A stretch of DNA of 64,000 nucleotides from a phage: the sequence record PZ357121.2; one strand, written 5' to 3'. Below, piece after piece: positions 5,051 to 18,289 of this stretch. Position 1 is the first letter of the stretch, and each line of letters begins with the position of its first letter. Made by a program: the position numbers and the translations under genes. The notes beneath the pieces were generated by a model. The model was not told where the DNA came from. It saw only the letters and a program-made list of their open reading frames with translations, and ran no database searches.

Positions 5051-5287
5051 TTATAGTGTTCCGTATACTCGAGTTGCTTCAACAAGACCATCACTGCCTA
5101 ATTTAAGATTAGTAATTTGGTCACCATCTTTAGGATTAACGATTACGAGAAAAGAACGTGGAGATTCTTGAATAACTCGTAATGTTGCATCTTGGAAACG
5201 TTCAGACACTTTATTGATGAGTGCTTGAGCAAATTCTTTTACTTTAATCTGAAATTCGTGTACTGTAATTGGGTTTTCACTTAGCAT
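5051..5287 (-). CDS. hypothetical protein
   Basis: 78-aa ORF on the gene strand. Confidence 0.5.
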   Translation of the reverse strand: MLSENPITVHEFQIKVKEFAQALINKVSERFQDATLRVIQESPRSFLVIVNPKDGDQITNLKLGSDGLVEATRVYGTL

Positions 5288-5347
5288 TTCTATTTCCTCA
5301 TTTGTTGGTAGAGTTATAGTATCACAACTCCACCGTGTTGTAAACCA

Positions 5348-5623
5348 TTAAATTGCTTTGCATTCAATTTTTTGTGTACCGAAATTGATATCACATTGGA
5401 TAACTAAATCGCCGTCAAGATCAAATACCACTATGACGTGTGCAGACCCAGGGAGAAGAGTAATAGCAATAGAATCTACTTAGTCTGGGAGCAAAGCATT
5501 GAGTACATGAGTTAGTTGAGCATGAACTCTGAGTTCGGCTGCATTATCAAGCACTTCAAACATATTATTAGCAATAATCTGACTGAAGACTACCTTTACA
5601 ATTTCAGAATAAGTTGGGAACAT
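5348..5623 (-). pseudogene. small ORF interrupted by an in-frame TAA (possible pseudogene or read-through gene)
   Basis: ATG at 5623 with GAGGTAATT RBS, 46 codons to TAA at 5480-5482, then about 43 further sense codons in the same frame to a stop near 5348, ending right at an early-promoter gtaaac. Confidence 0.3.
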
Positions 5624-5630
5624 AATTACC

Positions 5631-5855
5631 TCAGTGTACAGTATTTACTTTAACTCGAACAACAAATCGCTCGGTCGGTTCACCTACAGGAACAAACTCT
5701 ACATGATATTCGCCTTTGTAACGAGTATTCAGATCATTACGAATTCCTGCGAGTTTGTTAATTAATGTAGGACTCATATTAAGTCCCACTAGTTTACGAA
5801 GCATTTTGTATGCTTCATCTTCGATTTCATGATGTTTATCGTACATAGTTTTCAT
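5631..5855 (-). CDS. hypothetical protein
   Basis: 74-aa ORF; its stop overlaps the RBS of the downstream small ORF. Confidence 0.5.
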   Translation of the reverse strand: MKTMYDKHHEIEDEAYKMLRKLVGLNMSPTLINKLAGIRNDLNTRYKGEYHVEFVPVGEPTERFVVRVKVNTVH

Positions 5856-6036
5856 TTAACCATTCAATTGCCTGGTCGACGTTATCAAATATACCGCCGT
5901 CTAAACGTTCTTCATGCTCATAGTCCAGCACATCAATACCGAACTGTCCATTTACTAAAGGCCGTACGCCGAAGAAAAAGCATTTACGTTTTTCAATTTC
6001 TTCGATTGTACGAAAAATCTTTTCGATATTATTCAT
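5836..6036 (-). CDS. hypothetical protein
   Basis: 66-aa ORF on the gene strand. Confidence 0.45.
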   Translation of the reverse strand: MNNIEKIFRTIEEIEKRKCFFFGVRPLVNGQFGIDVLDYEHEERLDGGIFDNVDQAIEWLNENYVR

Positions 6037-6763
6037 TAGTTTTCCATTTGCGGCCTAATTGCCAATCAGGATGGCTCAATCTAGGGTCGTTTTCATCTGT
6101 TGTAGAAGATTTCTTACCTGAAATATGGATAAGCCATTTTCTGGATTTAGCTGCTTTAGAATAGTTTTCTTTTGCCTCATCTGAACGAATCTTACCTTTA
6201 TTCGCTTTGGATATTTTATTACCCCATTCTATAATAGCTTCTTCGCTCATAAAATCTTTTACATTTTTACCGTACATAGGATTATTTTCGCCTTCAAATG
6301 AATTACCATTTTTAAGACGACTTTCTTTAGATTTAATCCCATGCCCTGGTAATTTCTTGCCTTTAATCCATGGCACGGCACCGTTTTTATATCTCTGTTT
6401 TTGTGTTTCTGAAATTTTTAATGAAGTTTCAGGACTGGAATTAACATTAATACGGTTTTCATTGATATAATCCCAGCCTCCTTCTCCGCCGGGTTTCAAA
6501 TTATAATTAGTATCCAATTTTATAAATTCTTTAGTTACTAATTCAGCTTCTAAATCATATGCTTCTTGTTTAGTTTCAAATATTTTTATGATTTCTTTAT
6601 TAAAAGAATCTTTACCATATTTTGATTCGGCATTTTTAAAAGCTGTACCGGAACCTAAATAAGAATCATTTTCTTTTAAGGTGGTCTTATGAACCCCTAT
6701 ATAAATTTTGTTGTTAACCAAACACGTGGTTTTATACACAGTGTATTTTTCCATTAGAATCAC
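6029..6763 (-). mobile_element. GIY-YIG homing endonuclease (Seg-like), free-standing
   Basis: N-terminal GIY-YIG module (KIYIGVHKT...YLGSG) followed by basic K/G-rich repeats typical of Seg DNA-binding tails; track start is GTG, probable true ATG at 6754 with GAGGTG RBS. Confidence 0.75.
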
Positions 6764-6772
6764 CTCTATAGA

Positions 6773-6780
6773 TATTTATA
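6773..6780 (-). promoter_or_regulatory. T4 late promoter (TATAAATA) for the GIY-YIG gene
   Basis: Plus tatttata = TATAAATA on minus, about 18 nt upstream of the ATG at 6754. Confidence 0.4.
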
Positions 6781-6801
6781 CTTAACTATGGAGATTTCTA
6801 A

Positions 6802-7888
<1,087 letters not shown>

Positions 7889-10836: not shown

Positions 10837-11247
10837 CTACTTTTTCTTATGTTGGATATTCCAAGGCGGGTTGAACTTTTTGATAAAAAGCGGTTCTTCA
10901 AGGTCCATTGTTGCGATGGTCATTGAACCAAGTTCGTTGGTGACTGAAAGGTCAAAACATTGGCGGGCCCAGAATTCAACCTTTTTGCCTTGCATTAAGG
11001 CATCCAAAATCATAAGTGATTTTCTTGAATCTGAAGTCTGGTCTTTTCGATTTATGGCTGTTCGATAATAGTTAATGCGTTTCTTTAAATTCTTGGTTTT
11101 ACCAATATACACAAGTTCGTCATCTATAGCAATAGCGTATATGACATTTTTCTTATTAGGGACATCAACTGTTTTAATTGTTGCATCTTCTAATAGCTCC
11201 AATTCTGTATATTTAATAAAGGAATATTCGGCGGCAATATCTTTCAT
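10837..11247 (-). CDS. denA: endonuclease II (GIY-YIG family)
   Basis: 136 aa with GIY-YIG-like core (YAIAIDDELVYIGKTKNLKKRI); T4 denA size and position next to nrdB. Confidence 0.8.
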   Translation of the reverse strand: MKDIAAEYSFIKYTELELLEDATIKTVDVPNKKNVIYAIAIDDELVYIGKTKNLKKRINYYRTAINRKDQTSDSRKSLMILDALMQGKKVEFWARQCFDLSVTNELGSMTIATMDLEEPLFIKKFNPPWNIQHKKK

Positions 11248-11273: not shown

Positions 11274-12413
11274 TTAGAAATATTTTTTGTATGAATTGAT
11301 TACATTTTGGTCTACATCATTATCAATTTGTGCGACAAGATAAGAACTGATTTCAACTTCCTGAGGAGCTGCTTGAACTAAATCAGAGTTCAGATATTCA
11401 CGAATCCAAGGATACGGATGCTTGGTCGGAGCATCAGTGATTGGGCATGGCAAACCACACTGTTTCATACGAGACACAGTCAAGTAATCAACAAAAGCAC
11501 ACATACTCTGCGTATTGATACCTGGGCATGTACCGTCTTTAAAGAGGTGTGCAGCCCATTCCTTCTCTTGTCTATTTACTTCCATAAAAATGTCAACTGC
11601 TTCTTGTTCACATTCTTTAGCAATTTGAACCCACTCATCACCATCAGTACCAGATTGAAGTTGACGGATAATGTACTGAGTACCCTTGAGGTGGAGTTGT
11701 TCGTCACGAGCAATGAACTTCATAATCTTTGCATTACCTTCCATAATTTCCATATTTTTATGGAAGTTGAAAGTACATGCAAATGATACGTAAAAACGAA
11801 TAGCTTCCAGAGCGTTGATTACATGCAGACAGAGGTAAAGAGAACGCATTAGTTCGTATTTAGCCTGTTTTACGCCTTCGCTAAACTCGTGATATTCTTC
11901 TAAAGCATTCTGGTAAAGGCGAGTCTTGACTAGAACATCATCGTAATATTTACCTATTGATTCAGCTCGTTTCATGATTGCTTCGTCTAATACAATTTCA
12001 TCAAATACCTTAGATGGATCCGTATAAAGATTTCGCATAATATGAGTATACGAACGAGAGTGAATAGTTTCACTGAATGTCCATGTTGCAACCCACGTAT
12101 CTAATGAAGGGTCGGAAATCAGTGCCATAAGTACCGCAGATGGGGCCCTGCCTTGGATAGAATCTAATAATGATTGATACTTAAGATTGTTTGTAAAGAT
12201 GTCCTGTTGGAACTGAGGAAGCTTATTGAACTGCGCAGAGTCCAACATCAAGTTTACCTCTTCGGGACGCCAGAAAAATGACAAGGATTTTTCTATAAGT
12301 TCTTCAAAAACTTTATGACGCTGAATATCATACCGTGCGAGGCCAAGACCAGAACCAAAGAACATTGGTTCATTCAAAACATCGACTTGTTGTGTGTTAA
12401 AAACTGTACTCAT
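11274..12413 (-). CDS. nrdB: ribonucleotide reductase small subunit
   Basis: 379 aa, uninterrupted; strong similarity to T4/E. coli NrdB. Confidence 0.95.
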   Translation of the reverse strand: MSTVFNTQQVDVLNEPMFFGSGLGLARYDIQRHKVFEELIEKSLSFFWRPEEVNLMLDSAQFNKLPQFQQDIFTNNLKYQSLLDSIQGRAPSAVLMALISDPSLDTWVATWTFSETIHSRSYTHIMRNLYTDPSKVFDEIVLDEAIMKRAESIGKYYDDVLVKTRLYQNALEEYHEFSEGVKQAKYELMRSLYLCLHVINALEAIRFYVSFACTFNFHKNMEIMEGNAKIMKFIARDEQLHLKGTQYIIRQLQSGTDGDEWVQIAKECEQEAVDIFMEVNRQEKEWAAHLFKDGTCPGINTQSMCAFVDYLTVSRMKQCGLPCPITDAPTKHPYPWIREYLNSDLVQAAPQEVEISSYLVAQIDNDVDQNVINSYKKYF

Positions 12414-12466: not shown

Positions 12467-13456
12467 TTAAAGCTTACAAGCAGAACAATCTTCAGCTTTA
12501 GGTGTTTCTAATTCATAGTCATCTGTACCTGACCCATCACGAGTGTTATGATAGTAGAGGTTTTTTCCGCCAAAGTACCAGAAGTAAAGTAGATCGTCAA
12601 GCATTACTGACATTGGTACTTTACCTTTCTCAAATACTGCAGGGTCATAGTAAGTATTAGCAGAAGCAGATTGGCACACCCATTTCAACATGATAGCAAC
12701 TTGGGTCAAATAAGGTTTATTACCTTTCTTAGCAAGTTTCCACGCATAGTCGTAAAGACTCATATTATGTTCGATATTAGGAACAACCTGTCGGAAGTTG
12801 CCTTCTTTAGATTCTTTAATACTTACTGGACCACGCGGGGGCTCAATCCCGTTTGTAGAGTTTGATACTTGGCTGCTTGACTCACAAGGCATGAGTGCAG
12901 ACAACGTTGAGTTACGAATTCCGTGTTCTTTGAGTTCAGCTCGAAGTTCTTCCCAGTCACAGACGTAGTTCGGGGCTGCGATTTGGTCAATCTTTTTATT
13001 GTACCAGTCGATAGGTAATTCGCCTCTAGACCATTTAGTGTCTGAATAATACTCGCAACATCCTTTTTCTTTGGCGAGTTTGATTGAAGCTTTGATAAGG
13101 CCATATTGCAATCTCTCAAACAATTCATGAGTCAAATCGTTAGCGTCTTCATACGAAGCAAAGTTAGAAGCTAACCATGCAGCATAGTTCGTAACACCAA
13201 TACCGAGGTTTCGACGCTTTTTAGCTTTTAAAGCTTCTGGAACCGGATAATCTTGATAGTCTAACAGGTTATCAAGTGCACGTACTTGTACTTCAGCAAG
13301 TTCATTAATTTTATCTTGGTCTTGCCAATCAAATTTATCAAGAACAAAGGCAGAAAGAGTGCAGAGGCCCACTTCACCTTTGTTTTCAATAACTTGTATT
13401 GTTGTATACTCATCATCTTCGTAAAATTCATCTACAAATTCATAATCAATATTCAT
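12467..13456 (-). CDS. nrdA: ribonucleotide reductase large subunit, C-terminal piece
   Basis: 329 aa aligning to the C-terminal third of NrdA (GLCTLSAF..., SALMPCESSSQVSNSTNGIEPPRG, C-terminal CSACKL); has its own ATG. Confidence 0.85.
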   Translation of the reverse strand: MNIDYEFVDEFYEDDEYTTIQVIENKGEVGLCTLSAFVLDKFDWQDQDKINELAEVQVRALDNLLDYQDYPVPEALKAKKRRNLGIGVTNYAAWLASNFASYEDANDLTHELFERLQYGLIKASIKLAKEKGCCEYYSDTKWSRGELPIDWYNKKIDQIAAPNYVCDWEELRAELKEHGIRNSTLSALMPCESSSQVSNSTNGIEPPRGPVSIKESKEGNFRQVVPNIEHNMSLYDYAWKLAKKGNKPYLTQVAIMLKWVCQSASANTYYDPAVFEKGKVPMSVMLDDLLYFWYFGGKNLYYHNTRDGSGTDDYELETPKAEDCSACKL

Positions 13457-14156
13457 TTAATTCTTCTACCTTTTTTCGAGATATTCCTAGAGCTTTAGAT
13501 GCTCGATGTATTGATTGATATTCTATACCGTTTATTTTTACAGCAATTAAGTTATGGGGTTTTAATCCCTTTGGATGAGGTTTACTGACGTATTCTTGAT
13601 TATCGTTTTCAGAGATATTATCAAGCTTTCGACACTTAAAGCCTTTATGTTGAGACCTTTTGCCTTTGCATACGGCCGACATTGCCGAAGCATTGAGTGA
13701 ATGTAGTTCGCAAAATTCTCTTAGGCCTTTATGGATTTCTTCATGACCGTCTGGGAAAGTAAATACCCAAGTTGTTTGAAGTTTTTCTCTATGCTCGTCA
13801 GTTACCGGAATACCTTTGTTCCAAGCTGGTTTGCCTTTATTATTTTCAGATACAGAAATAGCCAATTTTCTTCTAAGCCACCCATGGCGTTTATTGGTGT
13901 TCTTTCGTTCAATATTATCTTCAGAATAAACACACATCATATTAGCGGCAAATACCAATTTATAATTATCTGGATATATCTTTACTAATAATTGATGAGC
14001 TATGTAATGCTCTTCGGGTGTCAAATCTACCAGGTTTTCCTTTGTATCAGAACCACCAATACACAGAGGTATAATATGGTGTGATTCGGTATAGCAATCT
14101 AATTTTCTGTTCTTAGCTTTAGAAATAAGGTTATTGTAAATTTTAGAATAATCCAT
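13446..14156 (-). mobile_element. HNH homing endonuclease (MobE-like) inserted within nrdA
   Basis: 236 aa with HNH core (ESHHIIPLCIGGSDTKENLV...EEHYIAHQ) plus repeated NUMOD-like DNA-binding modules; ATG at 14156. Confidence 0.8.
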
Positions 14157-14201
14157 AACTTTTCCTCTTGTTATGGATTATTTATTAACGGTCTGTGTAC
14201 T

Positions 14202-15635
14202 TTATTTGCTTTGAATTATACCGCCAGGATTAGCTTCATAAAACTTAGCTACATCCGACTTCTTAATTTTGATTAAACGGGTTTGTTGGCTATTCACATC
14301 ATTAGTTGGAATAGCGATTTCACAACATAAGTTACTCTGACGAATTGGAGCTTTTTCACGAATAAATGGAGTGTAGTTATTCGTGTTATCAACGAATTGT
14401 GGATAAATTCGAGCAGTGCCAGAACGTTCAGTCATGAACAATTCAAAGAGTTCTAGTGCTTTGATTCTTTTCTTTCTGATTGTCGGGTCTTTTTCAGCTT
14501 TCTCATAAAGCTCACGGAATTTATCTTGATCTTCAAAGAACGAGTAGTATAGTTCGCCTGACATTTCGTGAGGGCTAAATAAAGTAATATAATCATTTTT
14601 ACCAAGGCGTTCCATCATAAGGTCATTAATCTGAATTCCGTAGTCCATATGTCGAATACGGTTTTCATCCACGCCTTTGTTATTTTTCAGAACTAATAGG
14701 TTCTCTACTTCTAAGTGCCACATCGGATAATACGCTGTAGCAGCACCACCACGAATACCACCTTGAGAACAAGATTTTACTGCAGTTTGGAAATGTTTCC
14801 AGAATGGAATAACACCTGTATGTCGAACTTCACCCATACCGATCTTAGAACCTTCTGCACGAAGCATACCAACGTTGATACCGATACCAGCTCGTTTAGA
14901 AATATATTCAATAATTGATGCTGAAGTTTTGTTAATAGATTTTAACGAATCACCGGCTTCAATAACTACACAACTAGAGAACTGGCGAGTTGGAGTACGA
15001 GCACCTGCCATAATTGGAGTAGGCAATGAAACTTGATGAGTAGAAACGGCATCATAAAAACGAATAATATGTTTCAAACGGTCATGAGTTTCGTTTTGGT
15101 GTAAGGCCATGCCAATAGCCATGATAGCAAACTGGGGAGTTTCATAAATCTTCCCAGTTGTTTTATCTTTAACTAGATATTTTTCTTTAAGCTGCATAGC
15201 ACCAGCATAAGTCAGGTCAAAGTCTCGTTCATGTTTAATCTGTGAATCGAGATAAATGATTTCTTCTGCTGAATATTGAGACAACAGCTCAGGGTCATAT
15301 TTGCCTTCATTAACACAATAAGAAATATGGTCGATAAAAGCAGGCGGTTCAAACTGCCCATATACATCTTTACGAAGTGCAAACATTAGCCCTTTGGCGG
15401 CGACATACTGATAATCAGGTTCTTCGACAGAAATCGAGTTAGCTGCAACTTTAATACAAATCTTCTGGATATCTTTGGTGCTCATCCCGTCGACAAGATG
15501 GGTCTTAATTTCTTCGTACAATTCATATGGGTCAATTTGTGTTCCTTCACACTGCCAAGTTAAGACTTGAATAATTTTCTGTGCATCAAAATTTTGGGAT
15601 ACACCTGAATTTTTCACTACTTTAAAATTATACAT
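14202..15635 (-). CDS. nrdA: ribonucleotide reductase large subunit, N-terminal piece
   Basis: 477 aa aligning to the NrdA N-terminus through the active-site block SNLCCEIAIPT, then ending in its own stop. Confidence 0.85.
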   Translation of the reverse strand: MYNFKVVKNSGVSQNFDAQKIIQVLTWQCEGTQIDPYELYEEIKTHLVDGMSTKDIQKICIKVAANSISVEEPDYQYVAAKGLMFALRKDVYGQFEPPAFIDHISYCVNEGKYDPELLSQYSAEEIIYLDSQIKHERDFDLTYAGAMQLKEKYLVKDKTTGKIYETPQFAIMAIGMALHQNETHDRLKHIIRFYDAVSTHQVSLPTPIMAGARTPTRQFSSCVVIEAGDSLKSINKTSASIIEYISKRAGIGINVGMLRAEGSKIGMGEVRHTGVIPFWKHFQTAVKSCSQGGIRGGAATAYYPMWHLEVENLLVLKNNKGVDENRIRHMDYGIQINDLMMERLGKNDYITLFSPHEMSGELYYSFFEDQDKFRELYEKAEKDPTIRKKRIKALELFELFMTERSGTARIYPQFVDNTNNYTPFIREKAPIRQSNLCCEIAIPTNDVNSQQTRLIKIKKSDVAKFYEANPGGIIQSK

Positions 15636-16275
15636 AATAATTCCATGTTGGATAATTTGATGATTTTAGACGGCGTCTAACCGTTTGGGTGCTCATAGAT
15701 AAAGCTATTGACGCTTCATTTAATGTATCATATATTACGTCGTTTATAATTACTTTCTTTGCAAATGGATTCTTAGCTCCTATCATAGCATTAGAAATAG
15801 CTTGCTTAGTTGATTCTTTTAATGGGACTCCTTTAGAAATTTTTGATTTAATTTTTATATTGTATTGTCCACGTTTTTTACCTAATAAAGAATTTCGTAT
15901 CTTTTCTTTAGTCTCTTCAGATTTAACATGTCCTAGTTTGGAACGAGATATTTTATCTTTTGTTTTTTGGTCTAATTTTCGCCCTTTAAGCAAATCAACC
16001 ATTTTTGCTCTAGCCCATCCAAATTCTTTATTATTTCTAGAACTCATTAAATTAACCGCGGTTGCTAAACCTAAATTGTTCGGATATATTTTTAATAAAA
16101 GAAGATGAGCCAAATAATGTTCTGAATATGTTAATTTAACTAGATTGTATGACTCATTGGTGCCACCTAAACATTTTGGGATTATATGATGCCATTCACC
16201 ATCTATATCTTCAAAATTTCTTTCTTTATTTACCAAGTTTTTATATATTTTTAAATAATCCATAATATAATCCAC
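15628..16275 (-). mobile_element. HNH homing endonuclease, free-standing, upstream of nrdA
   Basis: 215 aa with HNH core (WHHIIPKCLGGTNESYNLV...SEHYLAHL) and K-rich NUMOD-like repeats; track start is GTG, probable ATG at 16263. Confidence 0.75.
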
Positions 16276-16338
16276 TTTGTAGTATCAACGGGATAGTATT
16301 TATCCCGTTAATTTATTATACACTTTTAAACTGAAGCG

Positions 16339-16593
16339 TTAATTATTCTTAGCAATAATTTCTTTGTATTCTTTAGGAGTCAAAACTGTGATATCGAAAT
16401 AAACCAATGGTTCTTTTTCCATACCGTAACCACCACAAAATTCACGATATTCATAAATTCGTTCATGTGAATAACAAATGAATCGTTCACCTTTAACTGT
16501 GATTTCACTATTTGGTGAAGGGATATCTAGTTCGGTAGGATTTTTCATTTCAAAAATTGTGGTGCCATATGAATTAATAAAACGTAAAATCAT
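16339..16593 (-). CDS. hypothetical protein
   Basis: 84-aa ORF abutting td. Confidence 0.5.
   Translation of the reverse strand: MILRFINSYGTTIFEMKNPTELDIPSPNSEITVKGERFICYSHERIYEYREFCGGYGMEKEPLVYFDITVLTPKEYKEIIAKNN

Positions 16594-18289
<1,696 letters not shown>

Follow-up and report, generated by a model that had tools for sequence, protein, structure and literature searches.

Directly upstream of nrdA in a Mosigvirus genome, we found a gene, HNH1, that in our judgment is likely to encode a free-standing HNH homing endonuclease of the MobE family and to have spread by homing on a promoter-less cassette of 681 bp. The protein is probably an active endonuclease, and we infer its nuclease activity, the position of its target, the coupling of nrdA to its translation, and its use of the nrdA promoter from sequence. 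The window analyzed here is a stretch of 64,000 nucleotides (record PZ357121.2) from an RB69-like T-even coliphage of the Mosigvirus group, for which Megablast returned many records at 96 to 98% identity. HNH1 is one more Mob-family homing endonuclease gene, at a previously uncharacterized site in the T-even nucleotide-metabolism block, and its predicted target is the start region of nrdA in RB69-type phages. The gene already carries generic annotations in its GenBank relatives, and our understanding of homing is unchanged by it; what it adds are two modest and specific points, a rewritten nrdA start and a putative stop/start coupling.

HNH1 and the genes around it

The T-even nucleotide-metabolism cluster, as delimited by ORFs and domain searches, occupies 10.8 to 22 kb of the window on the minus strand. 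Its order is rnh, dsbA/33/59-like genes, gp32, frd, td, nrdA.2, HNH1, the N-terminal part of nrdA, HNH2, the C-terminal part of nrdA, nrdB, and denA. The last of these (10837-11247) is the GIY-YIG gene for EndoII and not a homing gene. HNH1 (15628..16263, minus strand, 211 aa), recognized from its ORF, domains, family alignment, and structural model, is intergenic, lying between nrdA.2 and nrdA, each neighbor being a complete ORF, and not inside an intron or intein. The conserved upstream neighbor nrdA.2 (16339..16593, minus strand, 84 aa) was assigned to DUF5496 by domain and PHROG matches and by comparison with relatives.

The initial annotation had placed an HNH endonuclease immediately upstream of nrdA, in an ORF at 15628-16275, and this ORF is indeed present on the minus strand with an intact H-N-H core. 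Taken mechanically, it opens with a GTG at 16275 and codes for 215 aa. The ATG at 16263 is the most probable start, and the GTG is an unlikely one, because the homologs in a family alignment of 52 sequences begin with a nearly invariant M-x-Y-x-x-x-Y, the gene is annotated as 636 nt in all GenBank relatives, and a GGA is found 7 nt 5' of the ATG, with nothing similar before the GTG.

The layout of the protein comprises an HNH domain (aa 1 to ~75), NUMOD3-type K/S-rich repeats (~95 to 135), and an I-TevI-like DNA-binding domain (~150 to 211), with domain matches to NUMOD3 and I-TevI_DNA-bd and a Foldseek match of the model to 1i3j. Mob-family proteins are marked by an HNH domain at the N-terminus, a linker of the NUMOD3 type, and a DNA-binding module at the C-terminus that varies, and all of these were found in HNH1. 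The protein matches phrog_655, "homing endonuclease," with an E value of 1.8e-45, and is 33% identical to T4 MobE over 178 aa (E 6e-27). None of the Pfam HNH models hit HNH1 at E <= 0.01, its membership being recovered by the family profile and PHROG alone, while HNH2 matches PF01844 at E 0.0035, under the gathering score. Residues H25, H26, P29, G34, N40, E48, H49, and H53 (numbered on the 211-aa protein) are invariant throughout the 52-sequence alignment, which includes HNH1 and HNH2; the metal-coordinating HNH residues are therefore invariant in both proteins of the window, and the loss of them that would have refuted the initial annotation is not seen. The H-N-H block of the family profile aligns with the HNH motifs of McrA (the best match, E 5e-4), Cas8f-HNH, and a group II intron maturase. 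In the AlphaFold model of HNH1 (pLDDT 87.8), the core residues are located on a beta-beta-alpha unit (strands 23-26 and 41-44, helix 46-59), so that both the conserved H-N-H motif of the HNH superfamily and, as predicted by the model, its beta-hairpin and alpha-helix fold are present.

The second gene, HNH2 (13446..14156, minus strand; ORF, domains, and PHROG), codes for a 236-aa Mob-family HNH endonuclease and splits nrdA. The alignment delimits an N-terminal nrdA fragment of 477 aa (14202..15635, minus strand), ending in a 29-aa basic tail, and a C-terminal fragment of 329 aa (12467..13456, minus strand), opening with a 27-aa acidic head; the start of the latter is overlapped by HNH2 over 11 nt. 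Aligned to the intact RB69 NrdA, the split comes after CEIAIPTNDVN and before GLCTLSAF, which correspond to C439 and C462 of the E. coli enzyme. The ORF map and the domains confirm the earlier statement that two different HNH genes bracket the 477-aa NrdA N-terminal ORF. The two proteins had also been said to share a catalytic core and to differ elsewhere, and the pairwise alignment agrees, with 47% identity over the first ~99 aa (E 5e-26) and no relationship beyond. The HNH2 cassette was found in 35 records, among them both Mosigvirus and T4-like phages (Tequatrovirus), some at 99 to 100% identity. No record of the phage collection carries HNH1 and HNH2 together; both are present on one metagenome contig (L021).

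The cassette and the rewritten start of nrdA

The junctions of the window were aligned with those of RB69 and ZQ3, which have the empty site, and of NRG-P0074, which has the filled one. The junction alignment and the boundaries in relatives give a cassette of 681 bp (15606..16286, minus strand), which is AT-rich (GC 0.288 vs 0.376 for the window) and contains a short leader, the HNH1 ORF, and ten new nrdA codons. It substitutes for 56 bp of RB69-type sequence that runs in empty sites as TGGAGTAATG...AAGAGCAGT and contains the GAGG Shine-Dalgarno and nrdA codons 1 to 7 (MQVTKSS). Identity between filled and empty sites restarts exactly at GGTGTATCCC, 3' of the cassette. The cassette-borne nrdA start (15606..15635, minus strand, from the alignment) has the codons 1 to 10 MYNFKVVKNS in place of the seven of RB69, and carriers therefore code for a NrdA of 754 aa, against 751 aa for RB69. 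Relative to RB69, this recoded start shows a 9-nt insertion and 8 substitutions in 18 nt, whereas the adjoining nrdA sequence differs by ~3%. The HNH1 stop (15630-15628) and the new nrdA ATG (15635-15633) overlap in ATGTATAA; this overlap and the loss of the strong Shine-Dalgarno suggest that nrdA may be translationally coupled to HNH1.

The end of nrdA.2, a promoter, and a stem-loop are common to the window, RB69, ZQ3, and NRG-P0074. The promoter, found by alignment and a promoter scan (16315..16342, minus strand), is sigma-70-like, TTAACG-16 nt-TATAAT, with 10 of 12 matches, and overlaps a MotA-box-like CGCTTCA, its likeness judged by eye against the published consensus; both elements are kept in cassette-free phages. 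The conserved stem-loop AACGGGATAAATACTATCCCGTT (16287..16309, minus strand; alignment and fold) stands where the transcript is predicted to begin, in a region of 98 nt that folds at -20.5 kcal/mol (z = -4.6), and the cassette starts at the base directly 3' of it. An RNA structure hiding the HNH1 start was also considered, and was unconvincing, with weak AU-rich pairing at most.

The late-promoter box TATAAATA does not occur within the cassette, nor are there sigma-70-like sites on the minus strand inside the HNH1 ORF. Since the cassette has no promoter, HNH1 is most likely transcribed from the captured nrdA promoter and by read-through from td, and the conserved promoter, presumed to be that of nrdA, would now drive both HNH1 and nrdA. 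The mob and seg cassettes of T4 have been described as promoter-less and dependent on upstream read-through (PMC2988022), and T4 mobE itself relies on upstream transcription (PMC2790892; PMC2988022).

Distribution and spread of the cassette

The cassette is present in 12 of the 154 matching phage records, always at the same site and with 97.7 to 99.1% nucleotide identity, while RB69 and most of the others are empty. The same 12 records code for HNH1 proteins that are at least 99% identical, with one more record in the band of 60 to 80% identity, and the NrdA N-terminus MYNFKVVKNS is confined to these 12 and found in no other phage searched. The exact HNH1 protein is also coded by 13 additional contigs from metagenome assemblies. 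The boundaries of the 681 bp are identical in eight genomes and in five of the six metagenome contigs checked; the pattern of the right junction was unmatched in the sixth. Both states can be found inside one species, Mosigvirus JS09, in which SSE1 has the cassette and ZQ3 does not. Such sporadic presence among close relatives, at one site and with sharp boundaries, is a further mark of the Mob family. A search of the phage records and of 5.8 billion clustered proteins found no donor lineage, and just one cluster among these proteins is at least 90% identical to HNH1. In T4 the slot of HNH1 is taken by the unrelated nrdA.1, which was rejected as an HNH1 relic since it occupies the same slot without any similarity.

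We compared the diversity of eight carriers and ten non-carriers. Within the carriers, the cassette has a pi of 0.0066, vs 0.024 to 0.039 in most of the flanking intervals of the same genomes (4 to 6 times lower), the exception among the flanks being one 300-nt interval of nrdA with a pi of 0.011. Several of the flank haplotypes of carriers are also found in cassette-free phages. Between these 8 and 10 genomes there are no fixed differences in 1760 nt upstream or in 1380 nt downstream, and no extended co-conversion tracts were detected, with no fixed differences beyond the cassette; the replaced block is the sole sequence that differs consistently between the two groups. All eight HNH1 copies examined have an intact ORF, and with 6 synonymous and 4 non-synonymous variable codons among them, there is too little change to demonstrate purifying selection. 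The overall pattern looks like that of a recently spreading element on recombining backgrounds. Alone, it cannot separate homing from plain recombination, as a neutral insertion could also reach many backgrounds by ordinary homologous recombination between coinfecting phages.

The mechanism that we propose is intronless homing. The cassette would be transcribed together with nrdA from the pre-existing upstream promoter, with the hairpin at the 5' end of the message. During coinfection with a cassette-free Mosigvirus, HNH1 would nick or cut the other genome at or near the RB69-type nrdA translation start, and T4-type recombination-dependent repair would copy the cassette from the donor genome. 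The donor would be self-immune, since the 56-bp stretch has been replaced in it, and NrdA would still be produced from the recoded start, possibly via translational coupling. In T4, mobE is inherited at high frequency in a manner dependent on its HNH motif (PMC2790892; PMC2988022), and MobE nicks the 5' end of the downstream nrdB in T2, which lacks mobE, sparing its own genome through local polymorphisms (PMC2790892). Because the replaced 56 bp are the sole constant difference between the 8 carriers and 10 non-carriers compared, the target is predicted to lie over the RB69-type nrdA translation-initiation region, with the recoded nrdA start as the predicted determinant of immunity. However, the target may also lie outside the replaced block, since the cuts made by free-standing endonucleases of T4 are often hundreds of bases away from the gene of the enzyme (PMC2988022).

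A stronger version of this mechanism can be put forward only tentatively, and we regard it as doubtful. The cassette would then be a self-immunizing unit, in which the 30-nt recoded nrdA start destroys the element's own target in the ribosome-binding site and first codons of nrdA, and the overlap, together with the lost Shine-Dalgarno, ties NrdA synthesis to the translation of HNH1. If this were true, silencing or deleting the cassette would be difficult without severe damage to ribonucleotide reductase, an addiction-like twist. To our knowledge, such dependence of a neighbor gene is undocumented for the mob genes of T4, where the endonuclease gene is repressed and lies downstream of its partner.

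Homing by an active HNH1 has to be weighed against the possibility that the gene is defunct or hitch-hiking, kept because its deletion would remove the ribosome-binding context of nrdA and spread by general recombination or by homing in trans. There is a precedent in T4, where I-TevIII is a defunct enzyme mobilized in trans by mobE (PMC2790892). The HNH1 stop overlapping the nrdA ATG and the missing RB69 GAGG Shine-Dalgarno would fit such retention, active elements (I-TevI-like, HNH2) are close by in several carriers, and the substitution pattern among the HNH1 copies is uninformative. However, no copy has lost any of the catalytic residues or of the three modules, there are carriers such as SSE1 without any other element in the block, and the very low diversity of the cassette points to recent spread rather than long decay, all of which makes a defunct gene unlikely. 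It is still less probable that HNH1 serves mainly in competition or regulation, through marker exclusion of coinfecting phages or by binding an operator and so tuning nrdA. The I-TevI-like DNA-binding domain and the position of HNH1, which separates nrdA from its promoter and has a stop that overlaps the nrdA start, are compatible with such a role, and endonuclease genes are known to bracket essential genes at the boundaries of genetic exchange (Barth et al., PMC10448857). Yet HNH1 is dispensable, being missing from about 90% of related phages, and no evidence supports an operator. Competition is, moreover, hardly a separate mechanism, because one and the same cut leads to both exclusion and homing.

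The initial annotation had offered another origin, in which the endonucleases of the T4 td and nrdB introns had moved to positions around nrdA. Its premise stands, as td (16594..17454, minus strand, 286 aa; ORF and Pfam) and nrdB (11274..12413, minus strand, 379 aa; Pfam and alignment to the RB69 and ZQ3 NrdB) are uninterrupted: the td product covers its Pfam model at 1-266/266, and NrdB is colinear from end to end with that of RB69 and ZQ3 apart from a variable internal loop. The call of "intron-less" rests on these intact ORFs, since the Rfam search gave no match in the window and was equally blank on the control L002, where the annotation shows both td and nrdB in pieces around endonuclease ORFs. 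With two HNH genes around nrdA, this surface pattern suits relocation when the window is taken alone, but we find the idea scarcely credible. The enzyme families differ, HNH1 and HNH2 both being of the Mob family (phrog_655). The td intron enzyme of T4, I-TevI, is a GIY-YIG protein. HNH1 has no significant similarity to the I-TevIII-like enzyme found in the nrdB intron of a relative (E 0.028 over 19 aa). Comparison with intron-less and intron-containing relatives, which the initial annotation had suggested, shows HNH1 and the td and nrdB introns in every combination, so they are not alternatives to one another: HNH1 occurs alongside split td and split nrdB in NRG-P0074, a20, and AV114, with intact td and nrdB and no other element of the block in SSE1, and with a td intron and the nrdA-splitting HNH on contig L021. 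T4 also has a Mob gene, mobE, beside nrdA in addition to its introns. The chance that HNH1 is itself an intron-encoded endonuclease is practically nil. GenBank records WFL6982 and WFK label it as "group I intron endonuclease," and intron enzymes, too, often have NUMOD3 and I-TevI-type modules, but HNH1 lies between two genes and interrupts neither, and nrdA reads straight on from the overlapping ATG; the absence of Rfam matches in the window is uninformative in view of L002.

We therefore retain homing of a free-standing HNH1 as the preferred explanation. As read from these genomes, the td intron, the nrdB intron, HNH1, and HNH2 are separate elements that assort independently, and the locus is a natural example of such selfish elements around the ribonucleotide reductase genes. 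For annotation, the start codon of HNH1 and the occasional label of group I intron endonuclease are corrected.

Comparison with known systems

The system most similar to HNH1 is T4 MobE (Wilson and Edgell 2009, PMC2790892). Both belong to phrog_655, open with an HNH domain, continue with NUMOD3 repeats, and close with a distinct tail; both are promoter-less within the ribonucleotide reductase operon and adjoin a neighbor through overlapping stop and start codons, and both are polymorphic for presence or absence among T-even phages (PMC2790892; PMC2988022). However, mobE sits between nrdA and nrdB whereas HNH1 is upstream of nrdA, and the C-terminal DNA-binding domain of HNH1 is a different one, I-TevI-like. 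HNH1 is also the upstream partner of its overlap, and its cassette gives the gene downstream a new start. With another insertion site and only 33% identity, HNH1 was rejected as an ortholog of T4 mobE.

The split of nrdA by HNH2 reproduces the "genes-in-pieces" layout of Aeromonas phage Aeh1, where MobE also splits nrdA between the C439/C462 equivalents (Friedrich 2007; Crona 2010, PMC3045599). The tails of Aeh1 NrdA-a and NrdA-b have pI values of 10.4 and 3.8, vs 10.0 for the 29-aa basic tail and 4.05 for the 27-aa acidic one here, and in both phages the endonuclease overlaps the second fragment; this likeness is drawn from the published layout and the tail charges. In Aeh1, the tails are essential for the assembly of the ribonucleotide reductase (PMC3045599). 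Unlike Aeh1 MobE, HNH1 replaces the start of a gene and splits nothing.

The closest relatives of HNH1 among those examined, at 41 to 44% identity, are HNH genes at another locus, the gp53/gp4 junction of Yersinia phage TG1/phiR1-RT, Klebsiella phage R3_1, and Aeromonas phage Aes012. They are likewise free-standing and directly upstream of a conserved gene, which they overlap in R3_1. Their different locus, different genera, and low identity mean that they cannot be the donor of HNH1. Finally, the window shares with the "HEG islands" (Barth et al. 2023, PMC10448857) two endonuclease genes that flank an essential-gene segment and coincide with mosaic boundaries, although that concept comes mainly from ICP1-like phages and from the T5orf172 and IPA-HNH families.

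The slot upstream of nrdA

A promoter-like element (TTAACG-16-TATAAT with a MotA-box-like CGCTTCA), followed by a strong 5' stem-loop, lies at 16287-16342 of the window. Both are conserved and common to carriers and non-carriers of the cassette holding HNH1, the free-standing HNH endonuclease gene upstream of nrdA, and the first base after the stem-loop is the start of this cassette. In T4 the nrdA.2/nrdA slot is occupied by an unrelated gene, nrdA.1 (5186-5512 of the T4T locus), which, like HNH1, overlaps the start of nrdA (in T4, by 10 nt). NrdA is 754 aa long in both T4 and the HNH1 carriers and 751 aa in RB69.

The nearest relatives of HNH1 (loci L026, L027 and L028; 41-44% identity) are found in T4-like phages of Yersinia, Klebsiella and Aeromonas, at the gp53/gp4 junction. 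Like HNH1, each immediately precedes a conserved gene, and the two genes overlap in Klebsiella phage R3_1.

Other variable sites and the count of mobile elements

The frd/td junction is a further variable slot of the block. Some Mosigvirus genomes (L010, L011, L020 and the metagenome contig L021) contain in this gap a 115-aa ORF of unassigned function. The window lacks this ORF, and its frd and td genes overlap (17451-17454). Variation is also found within NrdB, in which residues ~166-190 (window ~11843-11918) form a hypervariable loop with many indels, for which the window, RB69 and ZQ3 have wholly different sequences and lengths; the remaining protein is near-identical. The GenBank NrdB protein of RB69 has an apparent frame-shift over about 40 aa downstream of this loop.

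The GIY-YIG ORF downstream of nrdB (10837-11247, 136 aa) is denA (endonuclease II) and no homing endonuclease, although a count of mobile elements could include it in error. As for introns, an Rfam search at gathering thresholds reported no group I intron in 1-2256 and 5535-7411 of the locus of the carrier NRG-P0074, although the annotation shows its td interrupted by an I-TevI-like ORF of 245 aa and its nrdB by an I-TevIII-like ORF of 269 aa; therefore, Rfam negatives are unreliable for ORF-containing T-even introns.

The split nrdA gene

In the window, nrdA (12467-15635) is interrupted by HNH2 (13446-14156) and encoded as ORFs of 477 and 329 aa, with the break point between the equivalents of C439 and C462. 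The first fragment has an extra basic tail (29 aa, pI 10.0) and the second an extra acidic head (27 aa, pI 4.05). The HNH2 cassette is present in 35 records in all and, since some Mosigvirus and some T4-like (Tequatrovirus) copies are 99-100% identical, sequence comparison suggests that it spread recently between the two genera. The layout of nrdA and HNH2 is the same as that of NrdA-a/MobE/NrdA-b in Aeromonas phage Aeh1.
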